64,000 bases of DNA, taken from Candidatus Hermodarchaeota archaeon (GTDB lineage Archaea > Asgardarchaeota > Lokiarchaeia > Sigyniarchaeales > SOKP01). Position numbers and translations under genes: made by a program. Shown piece after piece: positions 5,285 to 27,250 of this stretch. The stretch covers positions 47,323 through 111,322 of the forward strand of contig JBHLLG010000003.1 in the NCBI GenBank assembly GCA_048885925.1, written 5' to 3'. Numbering within the stretch: the first letter of the stretch is position 1; every line of letters starts with the position of its first letter. The notes under the pieces are model-generated. The model was given only the letters and a program-made list of their open reading frames with translations. It was not told the origin of the DNA and did no database searches.

Positions 5285-7693
5285 TTAAATGAAGCATGAT
5301 AAATCTGTTTGAAGCGATTTCTTATTATAATCTAAAGTTAATAATTCTTCAAGCTCAGGGAACTTAAAAGGAAAGATGTTTTCAAAAGCTCTTTTTAGAA
5401 GTTCAATGTACTTTCTTTTATCATACTGGTGCTTTTTTGGATTATACAAATCTGAAAGGATAACTTTCTTTTCAGGAAAATTCGGATCCGCATCAGCGTT
5501 AAGAATAATATATCTCACATTCTTTCCAGCAGACGCTACAATACCTGAGCGTTCTAACTGTCTTGCGGCTACAGCTTGATAAGAATTTACTTTGTATGCT
5601 GATGGCTTTCGGGATATTTTTTGACGGATAGAAAGTTCATCTCTGGATACTTTCCCCGAACAAATTCGTTCTACATATTCATAGAGCTTTTCCATTGCTT
5701 GTGGAATTCTTTCTATAAATTCATTGACGGTTTTTGCACCTTGAAAGACATCAATAAAGGCATATTGAGCATCTTTTACAATTTTGGGTATATCTCTGCG
5801 TCTCACTTCAATACCTCTCACCTTGACCTCGCCATTGCTTTTTATCCCCCAGTAATGACTAAGGGCTGGTACCTCTGGTTCTGCTCGAGAAGGCAAGAAA
5901 ACGATAACATTGAATCTTCCCTCCCAACTCATAGGAATACTTGTGCTTTTAGATATTTCTTCAGCAATTTTTCTTGTTAATTTCTCAAATTCTTCTGGAT
6001 TTCTTCCTTTTTTGTCTTGGATCCACATGGAATCAACAATTCCATGGACAATTTTACAATCATAATTTTTAGCAATCTCGACGGATCTCAATAAAAATTC
6101 ACGAGCGAAGGCACAAACTGTTTGATGAGCCTCAATTTTTCCAAAACGGGCGTTTTTAAATCCTAAATATCCAAAACTTACAACAAGTACCCATTTTAAT
6201 GCAATATCGGTAAATTTGTATCGAAGATCGTCATGAGTCTTATTATATGCTTTACACTCTAAACGCTTTCTTAATGGTAAACTAATTGATTTCGAAATAA
6301 TCCCCTCTCTTTTCGAACAAATATGAAAATCTAGACCAGGTACTTTAATCCCTGTACCATCATCTTTACAGCATTTGCAATTAATCGTTTCTGAAGAAAT
6401 ATTAAAGTTAGCCATTAGGGAGGGATACATTGAGGAAAAGTCTAACTCTATCACTTGATCAAAAACACCTATTAATGGTTCAAATATATGCCCACCTCGG
6501 TCATTTTTGATCAAATCCATTCCACTTCGAAAACCTTCTGGGCTCTTCTTGAAAGGTGGGATAAGGTGATTTAGTTTATAGGCATTATAGTATTGTATCG
6601 ATTGAAGAGCGCCCCCGATTGTTACTCTACATAATCTTTGCAATGGAACTCGAGATACTCTTGCAACCTCAATAACACCTGGTATATTTCCCTCGCTAAA
6701 GTGTAAGCTACCGTAAGTTGTTGTGTCTAAATGAAAGCGTCCTGTAAAATAAACTTGTGTTTTGGAACGTCGCATTATTATTCCGTAAGACATATAATGA
6801 TCAGAGTTTCCTGAAAGATTGAAGATACACTTTCCGAGTGGCGTTTTTGTGCGAGAAAAATAGAGATCGCTTGATACACGATTCACTGATGCTCGAGCTG
6901 CCAAGTAAGGAAACACAAATTCATCTCCTCCATGTGTTAAAATAATGTCTGGATCTAAACGCTCAATCACTTTACTAATTGATTTGATGGTTTCTGCTTC
7001 ATCAGCTTTGTCAATTAGAACTTTTCTTTTTCTCTGTCCATCAGCTCTCGGTATGTTGGCTTTTTCGTCTTTTTCAACAATACTAACTTCCGCACATATC
7101 AGCGGGTCGTTGAAATATGATCTCATTCCATGTTGCTGTATTTTAATATCCAGCCACACAGCTTTTAAAGGTGGTAACTCGTAAAACAATTCTTCGTTGT
7201 TGTCTTTTAGCTCTAATGAAATTAAACGCATTAATTGCCCGTCACCCTTTTTATTCTTTTCAGAATTAACCTTGAAACAACATAAAGACATTGGAAATAA
7301 ATCATTTACATAGAAATACATTTGCGAGATTGGAAGATCCGTATTATATAGAGTAAAAAGACCGATTTCATCTATTTCCTTAATTGTTTTCTTAAATACA
7401 GAAGGTTTTACTACAGAAACTCCTAATATTTTTACTTTTTCATGATCCTCTAACTTCACATATTTTTCACAGATTCGGACATCCTTTACATTGGGGTGTG
7501 ATTTGAGAATTTGTCTTAATCTCTTGAAATCGTTACCCGTATGTCTTTTTGGTACTGCAAAAAATTCTGGACAGAATTCATGAAAGATTTTTAAAACCTT
7601 TTGTTCCTTTAAAGTTTTTACCCAAAGGATAACTCCCTTATGATAAGTTGAAACATCTAAAAGCCAGCCATCAAATTGATCTTGATAATCCAA
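5285..7693 (-). CDS. polB2: Family B DNA polymerase, PolB2 (Dpo2-like) group, with degenerate 3'-5' exonuclease
   Basis: Motif A DFSSMYPS; motif B LKWVLVVSFGYLG; motif C HGIVDS (instead of YGDTDS); NCKCC...HIC insert; VRGIEVRRRD; exonuclease acidic residues lost; C-terminal QTDLSCFI. Confidence 0.9.
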   Translation of the reverse strand: MDYQDQFDGWLLDVSTYHKGVILWVKTLKEQKVLKIFHEFCPEFFAVPKRHTGNDFKRLRQILKSHPNVKDVRICEKYVKLEDHEKVKILGVSVVKPSVFKKTIKEIDEIGLFTLYNTDLPISQMYFYVNDLFPMSLCCFKVNSEKNKKGDGQLMRLISLELKDNNEELFYELPPLKAVWLDIKIQQHGMRSYFNDPLICAEVSIVEKDEKANIPRADGQRKRKVLIDKADEAETIKSISKVIERLDPDIILTHGGDEFVFPYLAARASVNRVSSDLYFSRTKTPLGKCIFNLSGNSDHYMSYGIIMRRSKTQVYFTGRFHLDTTTYGSLHFSEGNIPGVIEVARVSRVPLQRLCRVTIGGALQSIQYYNAYKLNHLIPPFKKSPEGFRSGMDLIKNDRGGHIFEPLIGVFDQVIELDFSSMYPSLMANFNISSETINCKCCKDDGTGIKVPGLDFHICSKREGIISKSISLPLRKRLECKAYNKTHDDLRYKFTDIALKWVLVVSFGYLGFKNARFGKIEAHQTVCAFAREFLLRSVEIAKNYDCKIVHGIVDSMWIQDKKGRNPEEFEKLTRKIAEEISKSTSIPMSWEGRFNVIVFLPSRAEPEVPALSHYWGIKSNGEVKVRGIEVRRRDIPKIVKDAQYAFIDVFQGAKTVNEFIERIPQAMEKLYEYVERICSGKVSRDELSIRQKISRKPSAYKVNSYQAVAARQLERSGIVASAGKNVRYIILNADADPNFPEKKVILSDLYNPKKHQYDKRKYIELLKRAFENIFPFKFPELEELLTLDYNKKSLQTDLSCFI

Positions 7694-7696
7694 TCT

Positions 7697-7978
7697 CTAA
7701 CCTTTTTCTTCTATCAATTCTTCTAACTTTTTTACCTTCTCCTCTAACTCCTCAATTCTTTTTTCTTGTTCAACTGCAAAGGAGATAAATAAGACTTCTG
7801 ACAGCACCGGACGGGCACTCATACTACCTGCATCAGCATGAATTCGAGCGAAGTTCATTAATTTATCAAAAATTTTCTGTTCTTCAGGGCGTAGAGCTCT
7901 TTTGAAGTCTTTCCAGCTTTCGATCTCATGCTCCAAGGCAGGTCGAAAAGAGGGTACCGTTCTTCCCATATCTTTCAC
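7697..7978 (-). CDS. Small helical PolB2-associated protein (arCOG07300-like)
   Basis: MGRTVPSFR...W..FKRALR.EEQ..FD.L signature; stop lies 3 nt from the polB2 start; alternative start ATG 7969. Confidence 0.85.
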   Translation of the reverse strand: MKDMGRTVPSFRPALEHEIESWKDFKRALRPEEQKIFDKLMNFARIHADAGSMSARPVLSEVLFISFAVEQEKRIEELEEKVKKLEELIEEKG

Positions 7979-8092
7979 TTTAATTTAAGGTAAAATCCAA
8001 AAAAGAGAGTATTGCAGTAAATTAAAAAAAAAATACAATACCAGTTTTCTGATTTTTAAATCTAATCATCGTTTAATAGATGATTTTAAAGA

Positions 8093-8233
8093 TTAATTTT
8101 CTTTTCCTTGGCATTCCGGACAAACAATCTCATCAAAATCTTCTAAATCACTTCTCCAGAAAAAAACTTTGCCTTTCCCTTTGCAAATTTTACATTTTTC
8201 CACATCTCCTTTTGGATATGCGAAATAGCTCAA
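8093..8233 (-). CDS. 46 aa zinc-finger microprotein (two CxxCxG motifs, DnaJ-type Zn knuckle)
   Basis: TTG start; SYFAYPKGDVEKCKICKGKGKVFFWRSDLEDFDEIVCPECQGKEN; RBS GAAGGTGA upstream. Not in the ORF track. Confidence 0.7.
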   Translation of the reverse strand: MSYFAYPKGDVEKCKICKGKGKVFFWRSDLEDFDEIVCPECQGKEN

Positions 8234-8302
8234 GTTTTAAATTCACCTTCTAAGGGTAATTATTGGAAAAGATTAATTCCAACAAAATATGGTTAATCTA
8301 CC

Positions 8303-8332
8303 TATTTAAATGTTTTCATAAAATATGAAACT
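8303..8332 (-). promoter_or_regulatory. BRE/TATA with upstream inverted repeat TTTCATA-AAA-TATGAAA containing AGTTTCAT
   Basis: The minus strand reads AGTTTCATATTTTATGAAAACATTTAAATA upstream of the Zn-finger/partner/polB2 genes. Confidence 0.5.
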
Positions 8333-8410
8333 TGGAAAAATAAATAGAAAGGTTAATAATATCTAAAAATAATACATTAATACTAAAAGAATGAAGAATA
8401 GAGAACAATT

Positions 8411-8821
8411 ATGAGTAAAGATTTGAAAAAATGGCATGCACCCTGTGGAATTTTCTGCAAAAGATGTCCGGGAGTAAAATCTTTTGGATGTAGGGGATGC
8501 AGAGAGCAAGAAGGTCAAATACGTAAGTTTCCAGTTTGTAAAACCTATAAATGTTGTATAAATAATAGATATGAATTTTGCTATGAATGTGAAGATTTTC
8601 CATGTGAAATGTTAGAACCTATTGTAAATTTTGAAATTTTCACACCACATAATTCCAAAGTATATAATTTGATTATGATAGAAAAGTTAGGGTTAGAAGA
8701 ATGGAATAAAATATGTGATGCCAAAACTAATCTTTACTATAATGGTCGCAAGATTCAATACGGTGGAGATCAATTAACTTTAGAAGAAAAAGATCCGAAT
8801 ATGTATAAAAAAAAGAATTAA
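8411..8821 (+). CDS. DUF3795-like Cys-rich protein
   Basis: APCGIFCKRC, CRGC, CC...FCYECEDFPC pattern. Confidence 0.8.
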   Translation: MSKDLKKWHAPCGIFCKRCPGVKSFGCRGCREQEGQIRKFPVCKTYKCCINNRYEFCYECEDFPCEMLEPIVNFEIFTPHNSKVYNLIMIEKLGLEEWNKICDAKTNLYYNGRKIQYGGDQLTLEEKDPNMYKKKN

Positions 8822-9147
8822 TAACTGAAATACTGAGTGAACGATAAATATTTTGATTTCTATACTTAAGATAGTTCTTTAAATTTAGGAATAAATTAGA
8901 AATTAAGTTAAGAATTTTTAAAAAATAAAGTCTATTTTAAAATTTCGTTATTTCTTTAGATTGGTTAGAACTTATCGAACAAAAATTCTTCTTAGTTCTT
9001 GTTATTATGCCCAAAGAATCCTTATGATAGTTGTTCTCTCACTCTTAAGGAAAAGATCCTAAATTTGTGCAAAAAAGAAGAAGATTAAGTGTATTATGTT
9101 CCTTTCAATAAAATTTTATATGGATAGATTTTCATATATAATATATT

Positions 9148-9885
9148 ATGGTAGCACCTATTACTTTTCTAAATTTTATAGGTATGGTCTTCGAGATCTT
9201 CATAATAATCATTGCTGCGGTTTTACTAATACTCATTCTAAAAAAATACTTAATTAAACGCCATAAACTTACTCGATTGCTTTTATTTATTTTTATAAAT
9301 TATTTTATTGCAATTGTTTTTTCTTGGATCTCAAAAGTTTTTGTAGTTTTTCAGATAAATATAACTCAAGATGGCTCTATAACTGCTTCGATATATAATT
9401 TAATATCAGATTTTAGATTAAGTGAATTTTTTGTTGTAATTGCCATCTTTCTATCGTATATATTAAAGGTAAATGTTTTTGAAAAGGGATATATTAAGTT
9501 ACAAAAATATATCGTGATAATTTATGGGATATTTAGTTGCGCTTACGTATTATTCATCTATGAAGACGGTAATACATTATTAGACATTATTGCCTTCTTG
9601 ATTGTCTTTATATACATGGTTATGGTATATGCCCCTTTTCTACGAAGATCAATAGAATCTTATCGTGCTGTGGAGGAGAAAACTTATAAACAAGCATTTT
9701 TATCCTTAGCAATCATGTCAGTCAGCTTTATGTTGATATTTCTTAATTTTGCTGTCGATCGATTATTAATCTTTTTAGGAAGCCTTGGATTTACCGTCTT
9801 TTATTTTCTAGCGTGGAGTTTTGCTATTGTAGGTATTTTTGGATCATACTATGGTTATGTTAGACCAAAGGCTAGTAAGGAGTAA
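9148..9885 (+). CDS. Seven-TM membrane protein, putative sensor
   Basis: Seven hydrophobic ~20 aa segments; no soluble output domain. Confidence 0.7.
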   Translation: MVAPITFLNFIGMVFEIFIIIIAAVLLILILKKYLIKRHKLTRLLLFIFINYFIAIVFSWISKVFVVFQINITQDGSITASIYNLISDFRLSEFFVVIAIFLSYILKVNVFEKGYIKLQKYIVIIYGIFSCAYVLFIYEDGNTLLDIIAFLIVFIYMVMVYAPFLRRSIESYRAVEEKTYKQAFLSLAIMSVSFMLIFLNFAVDRLLIFLGSLGFTVFYFLAWSFAIVGIFGSYYGYVRPKASKE

Positions 9886-9977
9886 TCATTAAATTTTTAA
9901 AAACTAAACATTAAATATTTTATAAATATTTTTATTTATTCACTAGAACATTAGAAATATGTTAAGCTGTGATTTAG

Positions 9978-10391
9978 ATGGAAAAGATAATACAAGATAT
10001 ATGGATACTAAATGATGCTGGTGCGGTTCTATTTAACCGTGTTTTTGAAAAAAAAATTGATGAACAATTAATTGGAGCTTTGATGTCAGCATTGAATCTA
10101 TTAGCAGAAGAATTAGAAAGAGGAGGCTTATCTAATTTTCAGCTTAAAGAAAAAAAATATTTTATTATGAAACAACATGGAATATCTTTTATAGTTAATT
10201 CCTCAAAAAAGACTAAAGAGAAAAAAGTTAATGAAGAATTGAAAAGTATAGTAAATAAGTTCTTCAATTTATATCCAAAAGAGATGCTTAATACTTGGGA
10301 CAATGATATAAGTATATTTTCTGATTTCGAAAAGCATATTGAAGATAGTTTACAAGATACTATAGATAAATTTGAAAAAGCTTTTTGGTAA
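9978..10391 (+). CDS. Longin-like domain protein
   Basis: IQDIWILNDAGAVLFNR N-terminal beta-hairpin, LIGALMSAL helix, C-terminal helix with F...Y; resembles Asgard longin/AP-sigma-like proteins. Confidence 0.7.
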   Translation: MEKIIQDIWILNDAGAVLFNRVFEKKIDEQLIGALMSALNLLAEELERGGLSNFQLKEKKYFIMKQHGISFIVNSSKKTKEKKVNEELKSIVNKFFNLYPKEMLNTWDNDISIFSDFEKHIEDSLQDTIDKFEKAFW

Positions 10392-10395
10392 TATT

Positions 10396-11145
10396 TTAAA
10401 ACCACACGTCAAGAGTCATATTTCGTAAGGGTACCTTTTTCTTAGGTTTACGAAGTTTCCACTTTTTCAGCCTATTTTCTGGTAAGTAAGGATGTTGAAC
10501 AAGCGTATATTCGACATATCTCTCATCATCATTTATCATTACCAGCACATTTCCAAAATGAGAAAGAATTTTACCTCCTTTTGGTCTGAAGAGGGAATGT
10601 TCATGTAAGGGTGCCGTTATTATAATGAGAGGTTTTGTTTTCCAGAGCATCTGTTTAATTCCATCTATCGCCCTTAGCAATTCTTCGAAAGTTTGCTTTT
10701 CATAGCCTTCAAATAGAGTTGTAATCCCAGAGATAAGTACAACTTTCACATCTTCAAGCATTGAAAGCTTATTCTCCAGAATCTCAATTATTTGGTCAAA
10801 AGTAAAGGCTCGTGAAATAAGGATGTTTTCTAACGCCATACGAGGGGACAGGTTTTGAGTGACTGCAAATTTGCTTACGTTGTAAGGGTTAAAATGATTA
10901 TTTCCATCGATAAAGGCAACTCTAATACCCTCTCCAAGTCCTCCATTGTCAAACGCTTTTTGAACGATAACTGCCGTTGTTAATAAGATATTAGTTGTTA
11001 ATTTCTTATCTCCATAAAGTAAATAGACTAAATCTCTGTGGAATCCGCCAGAAAGCAACTTATTGAGAGTCTTATCTCCGCTAGAAATGAGGTGCGAATG
11101 ATTGTTTCTTTCATGTACCGTGAATCCAGAATCAAACGTCATCAT
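10396..11145 (-). CDS. Inactivated RadA/RecA-like protein (PolB2-associated)
   Basis: SSGDKTLNKLLSGGF, FIDGNNHFNPY and LENILISRAFT are RadA-like. Walker A is degenerate (LYGDKKLTT) and Walker B lacks Asp (VLISGIT). C-terminus NMTLDVWF. Confidence 0.85.
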   Translation of the reverse strand: MMTFDSGFTVHERNNHSHLISSGDKTLNKLLSGGFHRDLVYLLYGDKKLTTNILLTTAVIVQKAFDNGGLGEGIRVAFIDGNNHFNPYNVSKFAVTQNLSPRMALENILISRAFTFDQIIEILENKLSMLEDVKVVLISGITTLFEGYEKQTFEELLRAIDGIKQMLWKTKPLIIITAPLHEHSLFRPKGGKILSHFGNVLVMINDDERYVEYTLVQHPYLPENRLKKWKLRKPKKKVPLRNMTLDVWF

Positions 11146-11226
11146 ATGAAGTAACTATTCTTCAAAATAAAACAAAGATACACCGACAATTTTCTGAAAT
11201 AAATCCAATTTCTCCATAAGACAATT

Positions 11227-11281
11227 AGATAGTTTCATTTTTCAAGAATAAATGTTCTTTTAAAAGTAAGATAGTTTCATT
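11227..11281 (-). promoter_or_regulatory. Perfect 13 bp direct repeat AGATAGTTTCATT (x2, 42 bp period) flanking a putative BRE/TATA of the RadA-like gene
   Basis: Copies at 11227-11239 and 11269-11281. Confidence 0.6.
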
Positions 11282-11480
11282 GAGACAGAGAGGTAATTGA
11301 AAGTAAAAATGAAGAAGAAAAAGATTCAGTTAAGAATGAATTAACTTTAAAAATGATATTACTTTTGATTTAAAATTATTCAACATGGTTTATAAGCAAA
11401 ATTAAACTTTATAATAAATCGCACCTAATAAAGTATAATCATCTTGAAAATTTAATCAAATAATAAACCAATGCGAGAAA

Positions 11481-13196
11481 ATGTCAAAACGATATAAAGA
11501 AAGGTTCTGGAAAGCAAAGTATGATCCAGGAATAGGTGATTTGGATCCGAAAGAGTTTGAAACTTCTTTTACTGAAACTATAAGAAAAACTTTCAATGAG
11601 CTTCCTGAAAAATTAGCTCTTGGATTTTACGGAACAGAAATTCCATATGGAGAATTAGACAAGTTATCAAACGAATTTTCCCATATGTTGATAGAAAATG
11701 GATTTAAAAAAGGAGATGTATTAGGAATAGCATTGGTAAATATTCCTGAATACGTGATCGGATTTCTAGGAGCAATGAAGGCTGGAGTCATCGTTTCAGG
11801 AGTTTCCCCACTTCTTTCAGCTGTGCAACTTGAATATCAGTTGAATGATTTAGGAACTGGTGGAAAACAAGTTGCACTTCTTACTTTAGATGCAGTCTTT
11901 GCGGGTCATATTACCAAAATTTATACGAAAATTCCATCATTAAAGCTTGTTATAACAACCTCGGTTGGTGGATTCATGCCGAAGATGTTAGCAAAACTGG
12001 GAAAATTGGCTGGAAAAATACCAAAAGGGAAGGTTACTCCATTAGAAGGTATTACCGTACTTGAATATCATAAGCATATTAAAGGAAAATATTCTGATAA
12101 ATTACCTGATGTTAAAATAGATCCGAAGGATATAGCATTTATTCAATATACTGGTGGTACAACGGGTCCTCCAAAAGGAGCAATGCTGAGTCATCGAAAT
12201 TTCGTTGCAGATATAAAAATATTTCAACATTGGCTTAGTTGGGAGTTTGGAACGGGTTTTGGATTATCAGGATTTCCATTTTTTCATATAGCAGGATTAT
12301 TTACATGTTCAAATGTTATAATGCTAGGGTGGAGTCAAGTTTTAATCCCAAATCCAAGAGATACAGGTCATATAATTAAAGAAATGTTAAAATATAGACC
12401 AACAGTTTTAGCAAACGTTCCCACATTGTATCAAATGATAATTAAGGATCCAAAATTCAAAAAAATTGATAAAGATATGATAGATTATGCCATTTCTGCA
12501 GCAGCTCCTTTCCCAAAAGAATCACAGGAAATTTTTGAAGGAGTCATCGGTAAAGGAAAAATAATTGAGCTCTACGGGATGACTGAAACTTCTCCATTAA
12601 CAGTTGGCAATCCATCAAGAGGAAAGAAAAAATTAGGACATGTTGGTTTACCATTCCCTAATGTAGAGTTCAAATTAGTAGAACCTGACAGTGGTAAAAC
12701 AGTAGATTTAGGTGAACCAGGAGAAATCTGTGTGAAAGGTCCGATGGTTATGGTAGGTTATCATAATAAACCAGAAGAAACGAAAAAAGCAATTGATTCT
12801 GATGGATTTATGCATACTGGAGATATTGGAATAATGGATGAAGAAGGGTATGTAAGAATCGCAGATCGAACCAAAGATATGATTATTGTAGGAGGTTATA
12901 AAGTATTCTCAACAAAAGTAGAAGATACATTGACTAAACATCCTGCAATTGGAATGGTTGCAATAATCGGGTTACCAAATCCTGAAAGACCAGGATCTGA
13001 ACTTGTCAAAGCTGTCATACAACTTGATCCAGATTATCAATATGATGGAAATGAAGAAGCATTAAAGGAAGATATAACCGCGTTTGCTAAAAAAGAATGT
13101 GCCCCATATGAAGTACCAAAGATTATAGAAATAGCGGCCGAGTTGCCACTTACAACAGTAGGTAAAGTAGATAAGAAGCTCTTGAGGGATCGTTAA
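11481..13196 (+). CDS. Long-chain fatty acid-CoA ligase (AMP-binding)
   Basis: YTGGTTGPPKG, YGMTE, GEICVKGP, HTGD and VGKV motifs. Confidence 0.92.
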   Translation: MSKRYKERFWKAKYDPGIGDLDPKEFETSFTETIRKTFNELPEKLALGFYGTEIPYGELDKLSNEFSHMLIENGFKKGDVLGIALVNIPEYVIGFLGAMKAGVIVSGVSPLLSAVQLEYQLNDLGTGGKQVALLTLDAVFAGHITKIYTKIPSLKLVITTSVGGFMPKMLAKLGKLAGKIPKGKVTPLEGITVLEYHKHIKGKYSDKLPDVKIDPKDIAFIQYTGGTTGPPKGAMLSHRNFVADIKIFQHWLSWEFGTGFGLSGFPFFHIAGLFTCSNVIMLGWSQVLIPNPRDTGHIIKEMLKYRPTVLANVPTLYQMIIKDPKFKKIDKDMIDYAISAAAPFPKESQEIFEGVIGKGKIIELYGMTETSPLTVGNPSRGKKKLGHVGLPFPNVEFKLVEPDSGKTVDLGEPGEICVKGPMVMVGYHNKPEETKKAIDSDGFMHTGDIGIMDEEGYVRIADRTKDMIIVGGYKVFSTKVEDTLTKHPAIGMVAIIGLPNPERPGSELVKAVIQLDPDYQYDGNEEALKEDITAFAKKECAPYEVPKIIEIAAELPLTTVGKVDKKLLRDR

Positions 13197-15791: not shown

Positions 15792-16346
15792 ATTACGGAG
15801 AAAGTTACTAAATCATTTATTTATAAAGTTTGTATAGTAGGAGACGGTGGAGTAGGTAAAACCAGTATGGTTTTGAGATATTGTGAGAACACCTTTAAAG
15901 AAAATTATATAATGACTATTGGTTCTAATTTTTCGACAAAACAAATAGAATTAGAAGATTATCCAAACTATCTCATTCGCCTACAATTATGGGATCTTGC
16001 TGGACAAAAACATTTCAGCTTTGTTCGCCCACCATTTTATCGTGGTGCTAGTGCGATTGTATATACATTTGACATTACGCGAAGAAGTTCATTTCAGAAT
16101 ATTTTAAACTGGAAGAGTGAAGTGGAAAAAGTAATCGGTGATGGTAAACCAAGTATTTTAGTTGGAAATAAATTCGATTTAGCAGAAAAGGGGAATAGGG
16201 AAGTAGGAGAAGGAGATGGAGAAGCATTGAAGGATGAGATTAATGCTTTAGCTTATTTTGAAACTAGTGCCAAGGATGATATTAAAGTTGAGCCTGTATT
16301 TAAAACAATCACAATGGCAATTTTAGAACACACCAAAAAAATATAG
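15792..16346 (+). CDS. Rab-like small GTPase (probable non-canonical ATT start)
   Basis: G1 GDGGVGKT lies in frame upstream of the track ATG (15867). Also G2 TIG, G3 WDLAGQ, YRGA, G4 NKFD, G5 ETSAK. No C-terminal prenylation motif. The start position is uncertain. Confidence 0.88.
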   Translation: MTEKVTKSFIYKVCIVGDGGVGKTSMVLRYCENTFKENYIMTIGSNFSTKQIELEDYPNYLIRLQLWDLAGQKHFSFVRPPFYRGASAIVYTFDITRRSSFQNILNWKSEVEKVIGDGKPSILVGNKFDLAEKGNREVGEGDGEALKDEINALAYFETSAKDDIKVEPVFKTITMAILEHTKKI

Positions 16347-17652: not shown

Positions 17653-17777
17653 TTGATTAAATATTTATTTTCAGTTAATGATTTTTAAAATAAAACTAAA
17701 ATATTATATTAAATTTAAATTGAGAATAAAAAATATTAAATTCATTCTTAATTCTATTTAAAAAAGTGTTGAGGCTA

Positions 17778-20700
17778 ATGGAAGAGAGAAGGGAAGAAAA
17801 TTTCGATAAAGAATTTGATGAGGATGAGTTCGATCCAACAAAGGAAGCATTCTTTTCGGATATGATAGAAATGGAAGAAGAAATTGCTTCTGAAGCATAT
17901 GAATTAGTTGAGCATGCTATCAATCTAATAGAATCACAATATTACAACGATAGTATTGAAATTTTACGTCAAGCAATTGGATTATATACTCAAATTAACA
18001 GAGAAGAAGAGATTAAAGCTATAAATGATAAAATAGCAGAAATATATGTACTTAAAGAAAAAGCATTCAGAGAAGTTGAAATTGAATCTGAAAAAGCTGC
18101 TGAACCCGTAGAAGTACCTGAAGTAATTGATAAAAGTTCAATATTTGAAAAACAAGAGGTAATGAAAGAGTTTGAAGCAACTGAAGAGTCTAAAGCAATT
18201 GAAGAACATAAAGTGTTAAAAGATGCCATAAAGATTGCTGATTTAATGATCAATGCGGAAAATTTGTTAAAAGAAGCTCAAGAGTTAATTAACAACAATT
18301 ATTTCGAAGAAGCGCTCAGTAAATATGATGAAGTGGAAACAATTTATACAGAATTAGGAAAATCAAGTGAGATAGATAATTTATACAAATTAATTGAAGA
18401 TTGTTATAACCGAAAGGCTAAATTCTTACGAAGTATTAAAAAAGAAGAAATTAGAGAAGAAATAGACACGAGTGTAAAAGTGGAAGCACAATCAACAGAA
18501 GATCTTTTAAAGGAAAAAAGATTAAAGGAATATTTTGAAAATAAAAAGAGAGAAGAGGAGATCTCCTCTAAAGCTTACCAATTACTTGATAAAGCAGCTG
18601 AATTAACCACACAGCACAAATATGACAAAGCTTTAGAATTTTATGAAAAAGGAGCTAATTTATTTGGAGAATTAAATTGGACATATGAAGTTAGAAAAGT
18701 TCAAGATACGATTTTTCAATTAAAAATAGAAAAAGCAAGATATATACAAAGGCTAGAAGAGGAAAGAATGAAACCAGAGAAAGTGGTTGAAACTAAAGAA
18801 GAAATTACTGCGCAACAGGTAACAGAAATTGAGGAGCAGGATAGAATTGCTCAAATAGAAAAGTTAAGAGAAATAGAATTTCAAAAAATGGAACAAGAAT
18901 TTTTTAAAGCTCAAATTGATAATATGGCCACTGAAGCTGCTAGAATGGCACGTGAATATGAATTAGCTATGCAAAAAGCGATTAAGAAAGGAGAACTAGA
19001 AGAAGAATGTATTTACCCAAAAGTCATTGAAATTTATAAAAAAATAAGGGAATTACTTGTTGATAAGGGATGGAATAAAGAAGCAACGATCTATGATGAT
19101 ACGATAGATATCTATATTCAAAAGTTTGAACAAGATAAAAGAATTAGGCAAATAGAAGCTGAAAAAATCAAAAAGCAACACGAAGCTGAAAAGATGCTGA
19201 AACTAAAAAAAGAGGACATTGAAATTCACCTCAGCGAAGAACAAATAAAAGCTAAAGAGATGCAACAACAAAAAGAGATAGAAATACAAAATGTTCGAAA
19301 TCAATTAAATGATATGTCAAAAAGAGCTGATCGGTTAGCAAGAGAGTATGAGCTTGCATTAAGAAAAGGTAAATTTGAGTTAAAATGTCCTTATCCTCAG
19401 ATAATTAATATATATAAGAAAGCTAAATATATGGCACAAGAGAGAGGATGGGATACAGATATAGCAATTTTTTCAAGTCAAATTTTTACATATAAAGAAA
19501 AGTTAGAAAAAGATAAAAAGTTAAGAGAAATAGAAGCGGAAAAAGCACGGAAACAAGAAGAAGTTGAGAAGGCTTTTAAAGTTAAAAGAGAAGAACCAAA
19601 AGTTTCTTTAGATATCGAGAAGTTAAAATTATTAGAAGAACAAAGAAAATTAGAAGAAGAAAAAGAAGATTTTGAGGATATGGTAAATGCAATGATAAAT
19701 CGAGCAGAAAAAATTGCTCGAGAATATGATACAGATATGAAAAAAGCCATAAAGAAAGGTAGATTGGCACAAAATCCTCCATTCTTAAAGATCATAAATA
19801 TTTATGAGAAAGTAAAACAAATGTTCCTTGAAAGGGGTAGAAATGAAGAAGCAATTGCTTATGGGAATCAAATAAATTTTTATTCTCAAAAATTAGAACA
19901 AGATAATAAATTACGAGAAGTGGAAGCCAAAAAAGCTGAAAGGGAAAAAGCACTAGAAGAAATGCATAAAGTTGATAGAAAAGTTGAAATAGATGACCAA
20001 AGATTAAAAGCTTCAGAGAAAAAAAAGGAAGAAGAAGAATTTGAGAAATTTATTTCTGAAAATGTCAATATGGCAGAAAAGATGGTACGAGATTTTGAAA
20101 TTGCTATGCGAAAAGCTTATAGAAAAGGGGAAATATTGGAAACTACACCATATTCTAAAGTTATCGACATTTATAAAAATCTTCAAGAGAAAGTCTATGC
20201 TAGGGGTTGGAGAGAGCAATCTGAAGTATACATAAATCAAATTAAAATTTATCAAGATAAATTAGAAAAACATGAAAAATTGTTAGAAGTTGAAGTTCAA
20301 AAAGCTCAAAAGGAAAAAGGATTAGAAGAAATGCATAAAGTAGAAAAGGAGAGTGAAGCTGATACAAAAAGATTGAGTAAAATTGAAAGAAAAAAAGAAG
20401 AAAAAGAATTTGAGAAAAATATTGCTGAAAATGTCAGTATAGCAGAAAAAATGGTGAGAGATCATGAAATTGCTATGAGAAAATCATATCGAGAAGGAAA
20501 AATTCTAGAAAGCACACCATATCCAAAAGTTATTGAAATATATAAAGAAATTAGAGAAAAAATTTATGCTAAAGGTTGGAAAGAACAAGCAAAAGTATTT
20601 GCAAATCAAATAAAAATTTATCAGGAGAAGTTAGATAAACATAAAAATCTCCTTGAAATCGAAGCTCAGAAAGCACAAAAACAAAAAGAACTAGAAGAAA

Positions 20701-23117
20701 TGCATAAAGTAGAAAAGAAGAGTGAAGCTGATACAAAAAAATTGAGCATTATTGAAGAAAAAAAAAAAGAAGAAAAAGAATTTGAAAAGCATATTTTAGA
20801 ACTGGTTAATAAAGCAGAAAAACTAGAACGAGAATTTGATTCATCTCTGAAAAAAGCGATAAAAAAAGGTAAGGTAATTGAGTTAACACCATATCCAGAA
20901 ATAATTGAGATATATAAACAAATTAAAGATGAATTGGATGAGAAGGGCTGGGTAGATCAATCGCAAATTTATTTAAACCAAATAAAAATCTATCAGGAGA
21001 AATTAGACAAGCATAAAATTTTGCTTGATAAAGAATCAGAAAAAGCAGAAAAAGTAAAAGAACTTGAAGAACTGAAGAAGGCAGGTAAAAAAGAAGTTAA
21101 ACCATTCAAACCAGAAAGAATTAAAGAACTTGAAGCTGAAAAAGAGGAGGACATATTATTAGACAAAGCGATGAGTCTTATTGATGAGACAGAAAAAGAA
21201 GTTAAAAGTTATGAATTAAGCATAAGGAAAGACATTTTGATGTATGTAAGTCCTTATGAGAAAGCAATCTTTAATTATGAAGAAGCAAGAAAATTATTCC
21301 AAAAAATTGGATGGATTGATGAGGCTAATCGATTAATTAAAACTATCAAATTTTACAAGGATAAGAAAGAAAAAGATGATAAATTAAGAGAGATTGAACA
21401 AAAGAAGTTAGAGAAACCAGAAGTTGAATTAGAAGCTGTAAAGATAGAACTTGATAAGGATTTTCTTGAAAGTCAGAAAAGATTAAGAGAATTTGAAAAA
21501 AAAGAAAAAGAAGCCGATGAAAAAGCAGTTAAAGTATTGTCTTTAATTCAAAATGCTGAAAAGATGGCTCAAGAATATGAATTAAAACTAAAATCGGGAA
21601 TATTTGATTATGAAGCACCATATGAAAAAATTATTGAGATTTATCGTGTTGCTCGCAAAAAATTTGAAGAAATAAATTGGAAAGAAGAATCAGCGAAATT
21701 AATAGATACAATAAATTTTTATAAAGAAAAATTAGAGCAAGATAAGAAGATACGAGCTTTGGAGCTTGAAAAAGTAAAAAAGCGGGAAAAAGAATTACTC
21801 CTTCAACAAAAATTATTAGAACAGGCACGCCAAGAACAGGAAAGATTACTGCAAAAGCGAAAAGAATCTTTACAAGTAAAAAAAGAACGTATTGCACAAT
21901 TTGAGACGGAGAAAGATAAAGCATTTCGTTTAATGGATCAAGCTAAACGTGAATTAAGACTTAATAATTTTGATGAAGCTATTGATATTTATAAGGAAAG
22001 TGAAAAAATGTTTATAGATATGAAGTGGGAAGAAGGAATTATGATGGTTAGAGATTCAATTACAATGATTATTAATAAGAAAAAAGCTTATGAGCTTGAA
22101 CAAAAAGCAGTAGAAGAAAGAAAAGTTGAAGAGCTTGAGTTTGAAGAAAAATTAGAAGAGAAATTAGCTGAAGCGCGCGAAGTAAGAAAAAAGCAACAAG
22201 AAGAGAAACGAAGAGAATTTTTAAAAGTTCAGAGGGAAAAAGAGCGAGAAGAAAAAATCTCAGATGAGGCATATCAACTTTTAGAAGAAGGTACAAATTT
22301 TATGGACCGTAAAAAATTCTCTGAAGCATTCGAGAAATATATGGCAGCAAGAGACTTATTTGAAGAAATAGGGTGGCAAAGAGAGGTTTCAAGAATTAAT
22401 AACGAGCTCCTATTTAAACTTAAAAGAGAAGAAAAACAAGCTGAGATTCTAGAAGAAATAAAGTTGAAAAAAATTGAAGAGGAGAAAGAATTAGAATTAA
22501 TAAAAGAAGAAACGAAAAAAGAACATGAAGAAATGGAAAAGAAGAGAAAAGAAGAAAAAAGAAAGCTTGTAAAGGAAGAATATGACAGAAAAATAGCTGT
22601 TCAACTCAATAAAGCAGAAAAATTAATAGAAAGTTATAGGTATAATGAAGGGATTGTAATAATCAAAGAAGAAATCCAAAAATTAAATATACCAGAAAAG
22701 GAATCTGAAATTAAAGAACTTCATGAAAAAATTGAAAATTTAGGAACCCTTTCTCATATTCCATTAATTACTATTGAAATATCAGGTGAAGAAATTCAAA
22801 ATGCGAATTTTAAAGCAGCTTATACTGCATTAGATGAAGCTCAAATATCTATAATCAATAAAAATTACAAGAAAGCTATATCTGAGTTAAACGAAGCAAA
22901 ATATAATCTTGAAAAGGTTAAAATTGGTAAAAGATTTGTAAAAGAGATTGACGAAAAAATTGATCAATACAGAGAAAAACTTGGAAGAAAACCAAAAGAA
23001 CCAGAAATTGAAGTACTCACTGACGAAGAAACTCAAAAGATTAAAGCAAGAATCATTGCTAGAAGGGAATTGAGGAGAAATAAGGTTTTAGATCTTTTAA
23101 AAAAAAGTTCAAAATAA
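17778..23117 (+). CDS. Giant all-alpha repeat protein (~120 aa units of an MIT/SNAP-like helical bundle plus E/K-rich helix)
   Basis: Recurrent A..M.REYE...KG...PY..II.IY.......GW......QI..Y..KL motif; ATG 17778 is preceded by GAGG. Confidence 0.8.
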   Translation: MEERREENFDKEFDEDEFDPTKEAFFSDMIEMEEEIASEAYELVEHAINLIESQYYNDSIEILRQAIGLYTQINREEEIKAINDKIAEIYVLKEKAFREVEIESEKAAEPVEVPEVIDKSSIFEKQEVMKEFEATEESKAIEEHKVLKDAIKIADLMINAENLLKEAQELINNNYFEEALSKYDEVETIYTELGKSSEIDNLYKLIEDCYNRKAKFLRSIKKEEIREEIDTSVKVEAQSTEDLLKEKRLKEYFENKKREEEISSKAYQLLDKAAELTTQHKYDKALEFYEKGANLFGELNWTYEVRKVQDTIFQLKIEKARYIQRLEEERMKPEKVVETKEEITAQQVTEIEEQDRIAQIEKLREIEFQKMEQEFFKAQIDNMATEAARMAREYELAMQKAIKKGELEEECIYPKVIEIYKKIRELLVDKGWNKEATIYDDTIDIYIQKFEQDKRIRQIEAEKIKKQHEAEKMLKLKKEDIEIHLSEEQIKAKEMQQQKEIEIQNVRNQLNDMSKRADRLAREYELALRKGKFELKCPYPQIINIYKKAKYMAQERGWDTDIAIFSSQIFTYKEKLEKDKKLREIEAEKARKQEEVEKAFKVKREEPKVSLDIEKLKLLEEQRKLEEEKEDFEDMVNAMINRAEKIAREYDTDMKKAIKKGRLAQNPPFLKIINIYEKVKQMFLERGRNEEAIAYGNQINFYSQKLEQDNKLREVEAKKAEREKALEEMHKVDRKVEIDDQRLKASEKKKEEEEFEKFISENVNMAEKMVRDFEIAMRKAYRKGEILETTPYSKVIDIYKNLQEKVYARGWREQSEVYINQIKIYQDKLEKHEKLLEVEVQKAQKEKGLEEMHKVEKESEADTKRLSKIERKKEEKEFEKNIAENVSIAEKMVRDHEIAMRKSYREGKILESTPYPKVIEIYKEIREKIYAKGWKEQAKVFANQIKIYQEKLDKHKNLLEIEAQKAQKQKELEEMHKVEKKSEADTKKLSIIEEKKKEEKEFEKHILELVNKAEKLEREFDSSLKKAIKKGKVIELTPYPEIIEIYKQIKDELDEKGWVDQSQIYLNQIKIYQEKLDKHKILLDKESEKAEKVKELEELKKAGKKEVKPFKPERIKELEAEKEEDILLDKAMSLIDETEKEVKSYELSIRKDILMYVSPYEKAIFNYEEARKLFQKIGWIDEANRLIKTIKFYKDKKEKDDKLREIEQKKLEKPEVELEAVKIELDKDFLESQKRLREFEKKEKEADEKAVKVLSLIQNAEKMAQEYELKLKSGIFDYEAPYEKIIEIYRVARKKFEEINWKEESAKLIDTINFYKEKLEQDKKIRALELEKVKKREKELLLQQKLLEQARQEQERLLQKRKESLQVKKERIAQFETEKDKAFRLMDQAKRELRLNNFDEAIDIYKESEKMFIDMKWEEGIMMVRDSITMIINKKKAYELEQKAVEERKVEELEFEEKLEEKLAEAREVRKKQQEEKRREFLKVQREKEREEKISDEAYQLLEEGTNFMDRKKFSEAFEKYMAARDLFEEIGWQREVSRINNELLFKLKREEKQAEILEEIKLKKIEEEKELELIKEETKKEHEEMEKKRKEEKRKLVKEEYDRKIAVQLNKAEKLIESYRYNEGIVIIKEEIQKLNIPEKESEIKELHEKIENLGTLSHIPLITIEISGEEIQNANFKAAYTALDEAQISIINKNYKKAISELNEAKYNLEKVKIGKRFVKEIDEKIDQYREKLGRKPKEPEIEVLTDEETQKIKARIIARRELRRNKVLDLLKKSSK
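19962..20746 (+). repeat. Intragenic tandem repeat with 369 bp period
   Basis: GAAATGCATAAAG recurs with its ATG at 19962, 20331 and 20700; 20323-20377 and 20692-20746 match at 53 of 55 nt. Confidence 0.85.
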
Positions 23118-25178: not shown

Positions 25179-26150
25179 ATGAGTTTAGAAACACCTTGGG
25201 TTGAAAAATATCGGCCTGAAACATTTGATGATATTGTAAGTCAGAGTATTGCGATTAATAACCTAAAAGAATTTGTAAAAACTACGGATATACCTCATCT
25301 GATTTTTACGGGTCCTGCAGGAACTGGAAAAACTAGTACCGCCTTAATAATCGCAAAAAGTTTTCTTAATGAAGAAGAATTTGATACAAACCTACTAGAA
25401 TTGAATGCTTCTGACACCGTACGGATAGATTTTGTAAGAAATGTTCTTAAGAGTTTTGTAAATCAACATTTAGTTAAAAATGGGTCTTTAAAGTTTGTGA
25501 TTTTAGATGAAGCTGATAATATTCCTTCACAAGTTCAGCAAGCTCTTAGGAGAATTATTGAAAAAGCATCAACTAATATAAAGTTCATACTTTTATGTAA
25601 TTATATTAATAGGATTATAGATCCAATAGTATCTCGATGCGCTGTATTTAGATTTGTAACTTTACCTAAAGAAAAAATAGTAGAAAGATTAAGATATATA
25701 GCAAAAAAGGAGAAATTAAAAATACCGTCTAATCAATCAGAAGAATTCTTCAGTCAATTATATTTCATTTCTGGAGGAGATTTAAGGAAAGCAATCAATA
25801 GTCTCCAAATGGCTGTTGCACTTGAACTTTTAGATAATTTAGACATTAACGAGATATTAAGAATTTCTGGATTCTTAGACAAAGAAACATTGAAAAGTTT
25901 AATTTTTTCTCTTAAGAGCAAAGATTATAGGAAATCAAGAGAAATTCTTAGTTCGATTGAAACTTTTGATAGTCGAAATTTCATAAGACAAATATCAGAG
26001 TACATACCTTCATTAAATATTTCACCTGAAAATATTATTAGTTTAAAAGCCTTTATTGGAGATATAGATTATCGAATAAGCCAAGGTGCTGATGAACAGG
26101 TTCAGATTTCAGCTCTGTTATCGGCAATCATTGAGAATATTCAATCTTGA
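25179..26150 (+). CDS. rfcS: Replication factor C small subunit
   Basis: PWVEKYRP, GPAGTGKT, ELNASD, ILDEAD, SRC, GDLRKAIN. Confidence 0.95.
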   Translation: MSLETPWVEKYRPETFDDIVSQSIAINNLKEFVKTTDIPHLIFTGPAGTGKTSTALIIAKSFLNEEEFDTNLLELNASDTVRIDFVRNVLKSFVNQHLVKNGSLKFVILDEADNIPSQVQQALRRIIEKASTNIKFILLCNYINRIIDPIVSRCAVFRFVTLPKEKIVERLRYIAKKEKLKIPSNQSEEFFSQLYFISGGDLRKAINSLQMAVALELLDNLDINEILRISGFLDKETLKSLIFSLKSKDYRKSREILSSIETFDSRNFIRQISEYIPSLNISPENIISLKAFIGDIDYRISQGADEQVQISALLSAIIENIQS

Positions 26151-26192
26151 TTATTTATTAGAAAATTTAAAGAGAGAAAGAGATAGTTAAAT

Positions 26193-27239
26193 ATGATTGA
26201 ACAAATTCCGATTTGGCGAATTAAGTATCATCCAAAAAGTTTAGACGAAGTTTGCGGCAGAGATGAGGTAAAAGAGACTTTAAAACGTATGATTCACCAA
26301 AGAAACTTTCCACATTTATTATTTATTGGTTCAAAAGGTATAGGAAAAACTTCAATTGCTCAATTATTCTCAAAGGAGTTTCTTGGTAATAATTATAATG
26401 CAAATTTTAAATTAGTTTATGCTGATGTTCCTTTAAGCGAAGAAGAGAGAACTGAAGCAAGATCTGATGCATATGTTTCTACAAGTAAAATTGGAAGTAT
26501 AGCAGGAAAAAGGATAACAACACCCGCGTTTATTCAGGCTAGAGTTAAACCCTTTGTACAATTGAAAGTGTTAGGAGATGCCCCATTTAAAATTCTAATT
26601 GTAAAAAATTTTGAAGCTTTAGGTGGGGATCAACAAGGCTTTAGAAGACTAATGGAAAAGTATGGCACAAATTGCAGAATGATATTGATTAGCACGAAAA
26701 TTTCAAGTATCATTGATCCTATTGTTAGTAGATGCCAAATTTTCTTAATTTCTAGAATTAAGTTTAACAATTTCAACGAATTAATTAAAAAAATCGCTAA
26801 AAAGGAATCTTTAGAAATTTCTAATGAGGTAAGTGAAATTTTGTACAAAATATCTGATGGAAAAATATCTCGAGCAATTGATATTTTACAATTATGTAGT
26901 ATTTCAGAAAACAAAATAGATTCTGAAAAGATTTATGAAACATCTCAATTTTTTCATAATGAACTTATACAAAGTCTTTTAATGATTGCTTTCAAAGGAG
27001 ATTTCCCTAAAGCTCGAGAATTATCACGCAAAATCCTTTCTAATTATAAATTTGATCTGAGCGAGTTCTTTAAACTTTTAATCAATGAATTAAACAAATT
27101 GCCTTTAAGTAAATTTGCACGGATTAAATTAATAAATTTTATTGCAGATTCTGATTTTAGAGCAATTGATGGGAGAGATAATGATATTCAAATATCTGGT
27201 CTTTTATCAAAAATATGTTTATTTTCGGATTATATGTGA
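26193..27239 (+). CDS. Second RFC small subunit with degenerate Walker B
   Basis: WRIKYHP, GSKGIGKT, Walker B replaced by LIVKNFEAL, RRLMEKY, SRC retained. Confidence 0.85.
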   Translation: MIEQIPIWRIKYHPKSLDEVCGRDEVKETLKRMIHQRNFPHLLFIGSKGIGKTSIAQLFSKEFLGNNYNANFKLVYADVPLSEEERTEARSDAYVSTSKIGSIAGKRITTPAFIQARVKPFVQLKVLGDAPFKILIVKNFEALGGDQQGFRRLMEKYGTNCRMILISTKISSIIDPIVSRCQIFLISRIKFNNFNELIKKIAKKESLEISNEVSEILYKISDGKISRAIDILQLCSISENKIDSEKIYETSQFFHNELIQSLLMIAFKGDFPKARELSRKILSNYKFDLSEFFKLLINELNKLPLSKFARIKLINFIADSDFRAIDGRDNDIQISGLLSKICLFSDYM

Positions 27240-27250
27240 GGATTTAAATC

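Follow-up and report, generated by a model that had tools for sequence, protein, structure and literature searches.

We analyzed a 64,000-nucleotide (nt) stretch of contig JBHLLG010000003.1 (assembly GCA_048885925.1) from the Asgard archaeon Candidatus Hermodarchaeota archaeon, referred to below as the window. On its minus strand, between positions 5285 and 11145, the listing of open reading frames (ORFs) places a group 2 family B DNA polymerase (PolB2), its small partner PPB2, and an inactivated RadA homolog (iRadA). We postulate that this locus probably encodes an Asgard PolB2 mutasome that is tethered to the sliding clamp PCNA by two C-terminal tails and is split into two co-regulated units. 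New here are the finding that tails resembling the PCNA-interacting protein (PIP) box are the rule on both PolB2 and iRadA in this Asgard clade, the finding that the operon is usually split in the clade, and a shared promoter element that is unique in the genome, conserved, and present on both units.

The association of PolB2 with arCOG07300 and an inactivated RadA was described by Makarova et al. in 2014 (PMC4104785), so that the sequence-only reading of this DNA, which had called the three-gene set already known, was correct on that point. Timinskas, Timinskas and Venclovas named PPB2 and iRadA in 2025 and modeled a PolB2:PPB2(3):iRadA heteropentamer for 40 species, with modeling on clamps as well (PMC11791011); the main text of that article mentions neither Asgard archaea nor ImuA. 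According to a 2026 review, the mutasome prediction awaits experimental verification (PMC13324097). Because the core idea, a dead RadA acting as the clamp adaptor of PolB2, has already been published in silico, our finding on that idea is confirmatory and not a discovery.

Genes of the module

The genes of the module are the following:

5285..7693, minus strand: PolB2, family B DNA polymerase group 2, 802 amino acids (aa), TTG start, matching PF00136 and PF03104
7697..7969, minus strand: PPB2 (arCOG07300 / DUF8156), 90 aa from the most likely start at the ATG of MGRT, N-terminal arm plus three helices
10396..11145, minus strand: iRadA, ATPase-dead Rad51/RadA fold, 249 aa, ending in KKWKLRKPKKKVPLRNMTLDVWF (Pfam, NCBIfam, and alignment)

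PolB2 matched DNA_pol_B (PF00136, 1.3e-25) and DNA_pol_B_exo1 (PF03104, 3.2e-11) in Pfam, as well as family B polymerases in the PDB down to 1.4e-39; its best NCBIfam models were the generic “type B DNA-directed DNA polymerase,” with scores below the cut-offs. Motifs were mapped by alignment to a solved Pyrococcus PolB and to the replicative PolB of the same genome (893 aa, LYGDTDS). In motif C, DTD is replaced by IVD (YIDTDG aligned to HGIVDS), so that the first Asp is gone and the second is retained, and HGIVDS was invariant in all eight aligned PolB2 sequences from the order. The Asp of motif A is retained, motif B carries N-to-V and Y-to-F substitutions, and the exonuclease site is lost (Exo I DIE to DIK, Exo II Asp to Val, Exo III region deleted). 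The ORFs and the motif alignment agree with the earlier description of an exonuclease-dead PolB2 with HGIVDS adjoining a small partner. The label “split PolB2” holds for the module, which is divided by opposite-strand genes, but not for the polymerase, which is encoded by a single intact ORF.

An alternative hypothesis is that PolB2 is catalytically dead and that the complex has a structural or regulatory role, such as the control of origins or forks, as was proposed in 2014 (PMC4104785). The loss of the first motif C Asp and the two motif B substitutions would be expected under this hypothesis. Nevertheless, Sulfolobus Dpo2, which has a similar motif C change (IID), is an active polymerase and is required for targeted mutagenesis (PMC11791011; PMC8764526), and the polymerase described here retains the Asp of motif A as well as the second Asp of motif C. 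We therefore consider a dead PolB2 highly improbable and retain the reading of an active polymerase. Dpo2 is an exonuclease-less enzyme that extends mismatches and lesions and copies undamaged DNA with high fidelity (PMC8764526), and the term “error-prone polymerase,” used in the sequence-only reading, therefore needs care.

PPB2 was listed as an ORF of 93 aa from a GTG (7697..7978), in which MGRTVPSFR begins at residue 4. Because orthologs do not conserve the residues that precede MGRT, the start is most likely the MGRT ATG at window position 7969, giving 90 aa. Residues M1, G2, R3, T4, and R9 were invariant in 20/20 sequences of the PPB2 alignment (A3), and an N-terminal MGRT arm with Arg3 and Arg9 is described in PMC11791011. 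An AlphaFold2 (AF2) model predicts a free N-terminal arm followed by helices at residues 8 to 25, 28 to 45, and 53 to 89, with a predicted local distance difference test (pLDDT) score of 76.9. A Foldseek comparison of this model with the PDB returned generic helical bundles and nothing at E ≤ 0.001, a result that is neutral on the reported sigma-factor likeness. The PF26485 assignment of the window's PPB2 and of all 120 homologs listed is a precomputed one, and DUF8156 appears in one UniRef name. In seven loci (L203, L217, L221, L222, and L224 to L226), PPB2 reads MCGRT or MVGRT and is one residue longer, and in three others (L202, L223, and L233) its ATG start could not be placed.

The TTG start of PolB2 lies 4 nt past the PPB2 stop (window 7691 to 7699), and the first in-frame ATG occurs only at about residue 125. 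This arrangement, with the TTG so close to the stop and no earlier in-frame ATG, suggests that PPB2 and PolB2 are translationally coupled.

iRadA matched the Rad51/RadA family (PF08423) at 2.9e-15 in Pfam. Its alignment to the RadA, Rad51, and Dmc1 models of NCBIfam begins at about residue 60 to 66 of those models: the N-terminal helical domain is absent. In an alignment to a solved Pyrococcus RadA, Walker A has changed from GEFGSGKTQ to GDK-KLTTN (Lys to Thr, glycines lost) and Walker B from LLIVDS to VVLISG (Asp to Ser). The loss extends to relatives, as the G....GK[TS] pattern was absent from 94 of the 111 representatives of at least 200 aa that were counted in a survey of 1.84 billion cluster representatives (50% identity). 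The AF2 model consists of a RecA-like core that is predicted to be folded to residue 229 (pLDDT 89.5) and a tail, residues 230 to 249, that is predicted to be disordered (pLDDT about 65) and to terminate in a short helix over LDVW. Orthologs with 78 to 90% identity were found in 22 of 23 same-genus genomes. In the sequence-only reading, iRadA was thought to “load” the polymerase. This is unsupported: because its ATPase site is absent, iRadA can tether but not load.

C-terminal tails and the sliding clamp

PolB2 and iRadA both end in short motifs of the PIP type:

5288..5311, minus strand: PolB2 C-terminal PIP box QTDLSCFI, the final 8 codons, assigned from Qxxhxxa conservation in Asgard tails
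10399..10422, minus strand: iRadA C-terminal PIP-like box NMTLDVWF, with the basic linker KKWKLRKPKKKVPLR directly before the box

We collected 80 PPB2-centered Asgard loci with alignment A3; these overlap with the genus and order genomes described below. In these loci, which are relatives and whose tail counts are not independent events, the PolB2 tail fits Qxxhxxa in 66 of 68 readable cases, the iRadA tail fits hDxah in 65 of 65, and both motifs occur together in 52 of 54 readable pairs. Within the genus, every readable iRadA tail, including those of two partial orthologs, has the form KKK-x-PL(K/R)-N-x-x-(L/I)-D-x-(W/F)-h, and all 11 complete PolB2 tails have the form Q-(K/R)-D-(L/I/M)-S-C-(F/Y)-h. 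Elsewhere in the order, the iRadA tails read NMSLDHYL, NLTLDYYI, NLTLDKYL, or RTLDDFA, and the paired PolB2 ends in QGALDKFM, SGLDKYF, QKPISAYF, or QPGLDAWI. The PIP box that had been proposed for PolB2 thus proved to be conserved, and the PIP-like tail of iRadA was borne out by the comparison of C-termini across Asgard genomes.

The tail also accompanies the loss of the ATPase site in the wider survey. The core motif was present within the last 30 residues of 55 of the 94 Walker-A-less representatives, compared with a mean of 2/94 when the tails were shuffled (at most 6 over 500 shuffles) and 20/749 in internal windows, and it was found in none of the 17 Walker-A-positive RadA homologs. Known PCNA clients encoded in the same genome end in similar sequences, namely, FEN1 (QVSLDDFIK), the replicative PolB (IKKMDAFF), and the Y-family polymerase (QTNLLNYAYI), and the probable large subunit of the clamp loader RFC has a similar tail (...SVSDWL...). 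RNase HII was not found in this genome, which is 95% complete, and a search with PF08519 (RFC1) was blank here and in every control genome and is thus uninformative.

For a complex prediction, we combined PCNA (267 aa; alignment A2) with iRadA residues 205 to 249 (alignment A1). The score was 0.56 (runs of 0.59, 0.55, and 0.56), compared with 0.01 for the best of three controls; the runs agreed in at least 94% of contacts, and the pLDDT of the partner was at least 49. In calibration, 58 of the 80 solved complexes passed the prediction mark, as did 2 of the 110 mismatched pairs, and the passing scores of 0.60 or less comprised 7 of the 80 solved complexes and both passing mismatches, counts that hold only roughly here, where our own alignments were used. 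The prediction was graded as weak support. In this check, of the kind that the sequence-only reading had looked to, PCNA and the iRadA tail did score well above the best control.

PCNA-binding motifs on iRadA have already been reported, more often than on PolB2 and rarely on both; they were found with a profile made from PolB1 PIP boxes and were modeled in the PCNA pocket (PMC11791011). Thus, the earlier remark that no PIP box on the RadA-like partner was known to have been characterized did not survive the literature, in which such motifs are published in silico. In contrast to the “rare” occurrence on both proteins in that study, dual PIP-like tails are the rule in the clade examined here.

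The iRadA tail might instead serve a purpose other than clamp binding: it could dock on PolB2, PPB2, RPA, or a RadA paralog, or fold back, leaving PolB2 alone to contact PCNA. Position 1 of the motif is Asn where the canonical residue is Gln, 7 of the 65 tails lack even Q/N there, the PCNA prediction is weak despite its distance from the best control, and a second PIP box could seem redundant given that PolB2 and iRadA rarely both carry one (PMC11791011). The layout of the tail argues otherwise, with h-x-x-aromatic-hydrophobic standing at the extreme C-terminus, past a disordered basic linker, as in PIP boxes. The tail is also a close match to that of the genome's own FEN1 (QVSLDDFI), the motif is missing from all 17 Walker-A-positive RadA homologs, and the same motif was recovered by the PolB1-PIP profile and placed in the PCNA pocket by modeling (PMC11791011). 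We consider a tail that does not bind the clamp quite unlikely. Under the preferred reading, iRadA would be a clamp-binding adaptor: its tail is conserved and PIP-like, its docking on PCNA is weakly predicted, and PCNA binding is plausible. This part of the sequence-only reading stands, except that the idea had been published before and that loading is not part of it.

Gene order and the shared promoter element

About 2.4 kb separate the PPB2 start from the iRadA stop, and the interval consists of three plus-strand ORFs. The ORF listing here agrees with the sequence-only reading, in which the RadA-like gene lay on the same strand 2.4 kb upstream with three opposite-strand genes between. We regard these genes as interval cargo that is not part of the machine:

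8411..8821, plus strand: DUF3795 (Pfam)
9148..9885, plus strand: membrane protein
9978..10391, plus strand: longin-like protein (Pfam)

In the same genus, iRadA lies upstream of PPB2-PolB2 on one strand wherever the contig allows. The content of the interval changes among these genomes (longin-like, membrane protein, DUF3795, GH20, and AMP-ligase genes, on the opposite strand), and so does its length, which is only about 0.5 to 1 kb in two of them. A partial second copy of the iRadA 3' end (residues about 145 to 249, 64 to 78% identical) is found in one genome (G005:C29:23598-23914), about 1.4 kb from the full gene, and the interval between iRadA and PPB2 is evidently prone to rearrangement on that account.

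Among the 80 loci, iRadA was upstream on the same strand in 64, on the opposite strand in 1, and outside the locus in 15. Thus, strand and order were kept within 6 kb in 64 of the 65 loci that show both genes. The gap between iRadA and PPB2 was at least 450 nt in 58 of these 64 loci and less than 150 nt in 6, and the contiguous operon form belongs to the most distant lineages (PolB2 41 to 74% identical). In this clade, the operon is usually split. Locus L199 has iRadA inverted and downstream of PolB2.

Each of the two units is preceded by an element of the same design:

8019..8052, minus strand: PPB2-PolB2 promoter element, TCAGAAAACTG-GTAT-TGTAT-TTTTT-TTTTTAATT, 38.0 bits, about 50 to 83 nt 5' of the PPB2 ATG
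11164..11197, minus strand: iRadA promoter element, TCAGAAAATTG-TCGG-TGTAT-CTTTG-TTTTATTTT, 48.1 bits

Both follow the pattern TCAGAAAAYTG-N4-TGTAT-N5-TATA-like tract, with the 11-nt box first. The PPB2 element ends about 49 nt before its ATG. Because the iRadA element ends 18 nt before the ATG, the iRadA mRNA is probably leaderless. The sequence-only reading had extended the module to 11281, which is beyond the iRadA start (11145) and takes in the iRadA promoter.

The strict pattern has exactly two matches in the 3.9-Mb genome (95% complete), both at the promoters of the module. A 34-nt matrix, for which 21 iRadA sites and 12 PPB2 sites from the genus were used, gave the iRadA and PPB2 sites 48.1 and 38.0 bits, and the next best site in the genome scored 21.4. 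The 13-mer core at the iRadA promoter, AGAAAATTGTCGG, occurs as an exact copy nowhere else in the genome, which has four matches with one mismatch. Across 30 same-genus genomes, the pattern matched 46 times (22 iRadA-type, 17 PPB2-type, and 7 others), compared with 5 times for a reversed control. The other matches in relatives and the next-best matrix sites in the window's own genome were set aside as chance, given that the inspected ones (four of the 7 others) were followed by neither a TATA tract nor an ORF.

In both intergenic regions, conservation is highest over the element; that of iRadA is at least 95% identical in 21 genomes, in which the flanking intergenic DNA and adjacent codons vary. 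It was also detected outside the training genus, in lineages whose PolB2 is 61 to 79% identical, where iRadA is preceded by (T/C)AGAAAATTGTCGG(A/T/G)GTA and PPB2 by T(C/T)A(G/A)AAAA(T/C)T-N5-GTAT-N5-TTTAAATT. In these lineages, the two best matrix sites per locus of about 14 kb fell upstream of iRadA and of PPB2 in 15 of 16 and in 7 of 7 split loci with a placeable PPB2 start, the start not being placeable in three more. Lineages with the contiguous operon have a related AAAAATTTGTCG before iRadA only. A literature search, in which matches were judged by title and partly covered, returned no published description of the motif. Because both promoters carry the same genome-unique element, iRadA and PPB2-PolB2 would be co-regulated; it appears that one operator was kept on both halves of the broken operon, and we infer a common regulator.

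Alternatively, the likeness of the promoters could be without regulatory meaning, either as a duplication relic of the operon split or as mere strong-promoter architecture. The PPB2 promoter of locus L218, TTAGAAAATTGTCGATGTAT, is nearly identical to the iRadA type, as would be expected of a copy, and the pattern came from these very sites. At an Orc1/Cdc6 paralog, a similar AGAAAATT box is separated from a TATA tract by the same 14 nt, which hints at a commoner layout. On the other hand, the element is conserved in 21 genomes while its flanks and adjacent codons vary, it persists where PolB2 is only 68 to 79% identical, and no site in 3.9 Mb other than the two scores above 21.4 bits, which argues against a generic promoter. 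We consider it unlikely that the likeness has no regulatory meaning, and we favor a retained operator.

Another alternative is that the module was uncoupled after the operon broke, with iRadA acting as an independent PCNA-associated mediator of recombination or repair and PolB2-PPB2 working without it. The gap of at least 450 nt in most loci and the separate promoters are compatible with this, as are two observations from other genomes: in genus g2, the two units lie 296 kb apart (G031), and in genome G038, PolB2 is absent from the 8 kb around the first iRadA-like gene detected (contig C4) and is located on another contig. However, strand, order, and proximity within 6 kb have been kept in nearly all loci despite the turnover of inserted genes, the promoters share an element that is absent elsewhere in the genome, and the element is still shared in diverged lineages. 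Uncoupling thus seems very unlikely to us, and a linked, co-regulated module accounts better for these observations. In the genus g2 loci (L084 to L086 and L123 to L125), no MGRT gene was seen beside PolB2.

Several other candidate sites were considered for the element. A 9-mer, [CA]AGAAA[AT]TT, occurs upstream of iRadA in only 4 of 13 loci of other genera, against 0.02 expected per locus; chosen post hoc, it is at most suggestive and was superseded by the matrix test. One of three Orc1/Cdc6 paralogs (G000:C51, L245 559-634) has TCAGAAAATTT, 14 nt, and CTTTTATAAG about 75 nt before its ATG. It was rejected as a regulon member, given a genus consensus of TAAGAAAATTT in an upstream region that is conserved as a whole and nothing clear in other genera, and it is kept as a weak lead to a possible regulator. 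The promoter of the genome's own Y-family polymerase lacks the box. One of the four one-mismatch matches to the 13-mer core, in codons 7 to 11 of the PCNA gene (G000:C2:87792, minus strand; AGAAAATAGTCGG, encoding LENSR), lies inside a conserved peptide and is probably a coincidence; it is kept in 18 of 20 same-genus orthologs and includes a CGG Arg codon, which would be unexpected at 30% G+C.

A second non-coding block lies farther upstream of iRadA:

11245..11312, minus strand: second conserved non-coding block 5' of iRadA, kept in 18/18 aligned same-genus genomes

This block, TTATTTTTACTTTYAATYACCCCTCTCYGTCTCCATGAAAC..TTACTTTTAAAAGAAC, is about 100 to 165 nt upstream of iRadA and is kept whatever the upstream neighbor. 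It had no Rfam match (window 7600 to 11600, E ≤ 1), no pairs by RNAalifold, no further copy in the genome, and no conserved ORF by eye.

Proposed mechanism, known systems, and neighboring genes

We propose that PolB2, which lacks an exonuclease, would extend primers past mismatches and lesions, as its homology to Sulfolobus Dpo2 suggests, and would join a PPB2 trimer and a single ATPase-dead iRadA in one complex, as modeled in other species. The complex would be tethered to the PCNA ring by the C-terminal motifs QTDLSCFI of PolB2 and NMTLDVWF of iRadA, and because both proteins carry a PIP-type tail, one complex could hold two of the three PCNA subunits. The insertion of variable opposite-strand genes would have broken an ancestral iRadA-PPB2-PolB2 operon into two transcription units, iRadA alone and PPB2-PolB2, and a dedicated DNA-binding regulator may switch both together, possibly after DNA damage.

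Among candidates for damage-induced mutagenesis in archaea, the PolB2 mutasome is foremost, and what is known of its composition and of its use of the clamp comes only from models. With conserved clamp-type tails on both large subunits, this Asgard clade offers a natural test case, and the genome-unique short element on both units could be used as bait for the regulator. Should that regulator respond to DNA damage, it would provide a first handle on the Asgard damage response. More tentatively, we speculate that the AGAAAATTGTCGG box is the operator of a novel Asgard regulator of stress or DNA damage that serves the PolB2 machine alone, that it was retained on the two halves of the broken operon over long evolutionary spans, and that this machine is a two-handed PCNA client that leaves the third subunit for a stalled replicase or a Y-family inserter, a combination that we regard as possible but doubtful. 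If true, a prokaryotic “tool-belt” hand-off resembling eukaryotic Pol zeta/Rev1 switching would exist in the closest archaeal relatives of eukaryotes.

Some observations weigh against the proposal of a PCNA-tethered, co-regulated mutasome. The contacts of PolB2 with iRadA and PPB2 are drawn from the 40 modeled complexes of PMC11791011, in which iRadA is said to bind a PolB2 beta-alpha motif that mimics the RadA oligomerization motif. The D(K/R) motif that is said to contact PPB2 is present as IDK in this PolB2 but shows no conservation across the other genera of the order. Beyond its weak grading, the PCNA prediction concerns a textbook interaction and a class of complexes, PIP-PCNA, that have already been solved, and its pass may reflect memory or likeness. 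The two sites also served to define the promoter pattern, counts across the genomes are not independent because these are relatives, and one promoter may be a copy of the other. Finally, an obligate partnership of PolB2, iRadA, and PPB2 is not guaranteed, because of the 296-kb separation in genus g2 and because PolB2 comes directly after iRadA in genus g9 (L077, L081, and L087), where no PPB2 was found in between.

The bacterial ImuA-ImuB-DnaE2 system, to which the sequence-only reading had compared the module, likewise combines a RecA-like accessory without recombinase function, a clamp adaptor separate from the polymerase, and damage-inducible mutagenesis. Its catalytic subunit belongs to the C family, its clamp adaptor is ImuB, a dead Y-family polymerase, and not the RecA-like ImuA, and it has no equivalent of PPB2. 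Here, the polymerase is of family B, the module contains no Y-family gene, and the genome's Y-family polymerase is encoded on another contig. The parallel thus holds as an analogy only, since the components of the two systems have nothing but the RecA fold in common.

Among the closest known systems, the Sulfolobus islandicus mutasome has the same three protein families, with a like loss of the exonuclease site and of the first Asp in motif C, the MGRT arm on PPB2, an iRadA without the N-terminal domain and ATPase residues, the ancestral order iRadA-PPB2-PolB2, and C-terminal clamp-binding motifs. It differs from the Asgard module in that here PIP-like tails occur on both PolB2 and iRadA (52 of 54 pairs), opposite-strand genes divide the operon into two units whose promoters are twins, and the host is an Asgard archaeon, with no Orc1/Cdc6 gene in the window. 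The Escherichia coli Pol V mutasome (UmuD'2C-RecA-ATP) is likewise a multiprotein damage-tolerance polymerase with a RecA-family subunit, a small oligomeric accessory, and a sliding clamp (PMC11791011). Its polymerase is of the Y family rather than the B family, its RecA is an active recombinase borrowed from the filament rather than a dedicated dead paralog, and its components are not homologous to those of the PolB2 module apart from the RecA fold.

Sulfolobus Dpo2 is damage induced, as the sequence-only reading had stated, and the induction, which is known for Sulfolobales only, acts via Orc1-2 (PMC6061795). The damage element bound by Orc1-2 (ANTTTC; consensus AATAGTTTCRGWDTACTCWS; PMC6061795) is, like the Asgard element, a short conserved promoter element, located upstream of dpo2 among other genes, and the iRadA promoter here holds TTTCAGA, which fits TTTCRGW. 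This likeness covers 7 nt in a genome of 30% G+C, and the core AGAAAATTGTCGG does not fit the remaining consensus. Moreover, the Asgard element stands upstream of the TATA tract, and in this genome it is confined to two promoters, whereas the Sulfolobus element serves a regulon of tens of genes. We therefore did not take the Sulfolobus ANTTTC element as evidence, given that only TTTCAGA fits, and kept it as a lead.

Several neighboring genes were also noted. The longin-like gene (9978 to 10391, plus strand) is convergent with iRadA; its Fuz_longin_1 match of 24.3 bits is under the cut-off of 26.1, and it is a eukaryote-like signature gene. A Ras-family small GTPase (15867 to 16346, plus strand) is a second such gene in the window. 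Between them and the clamp-loader genes lies an ORF of 1783 aa (17766 to 23117, plus strand) that has no Pfam match at E ≤ 1e-4 and sits in a region of strong G-over-C and A-over-T skew. The clamp-loader gene cluster (25179 to 28606, plus strand), 14 kb from the module, encodes two proteins resembling RFC small subunits (323 and 348 aa) and, with the tail ...QLKSVSDWLDLD..., a 451-aa AAA+ protein that is probably the RFC large subunit.

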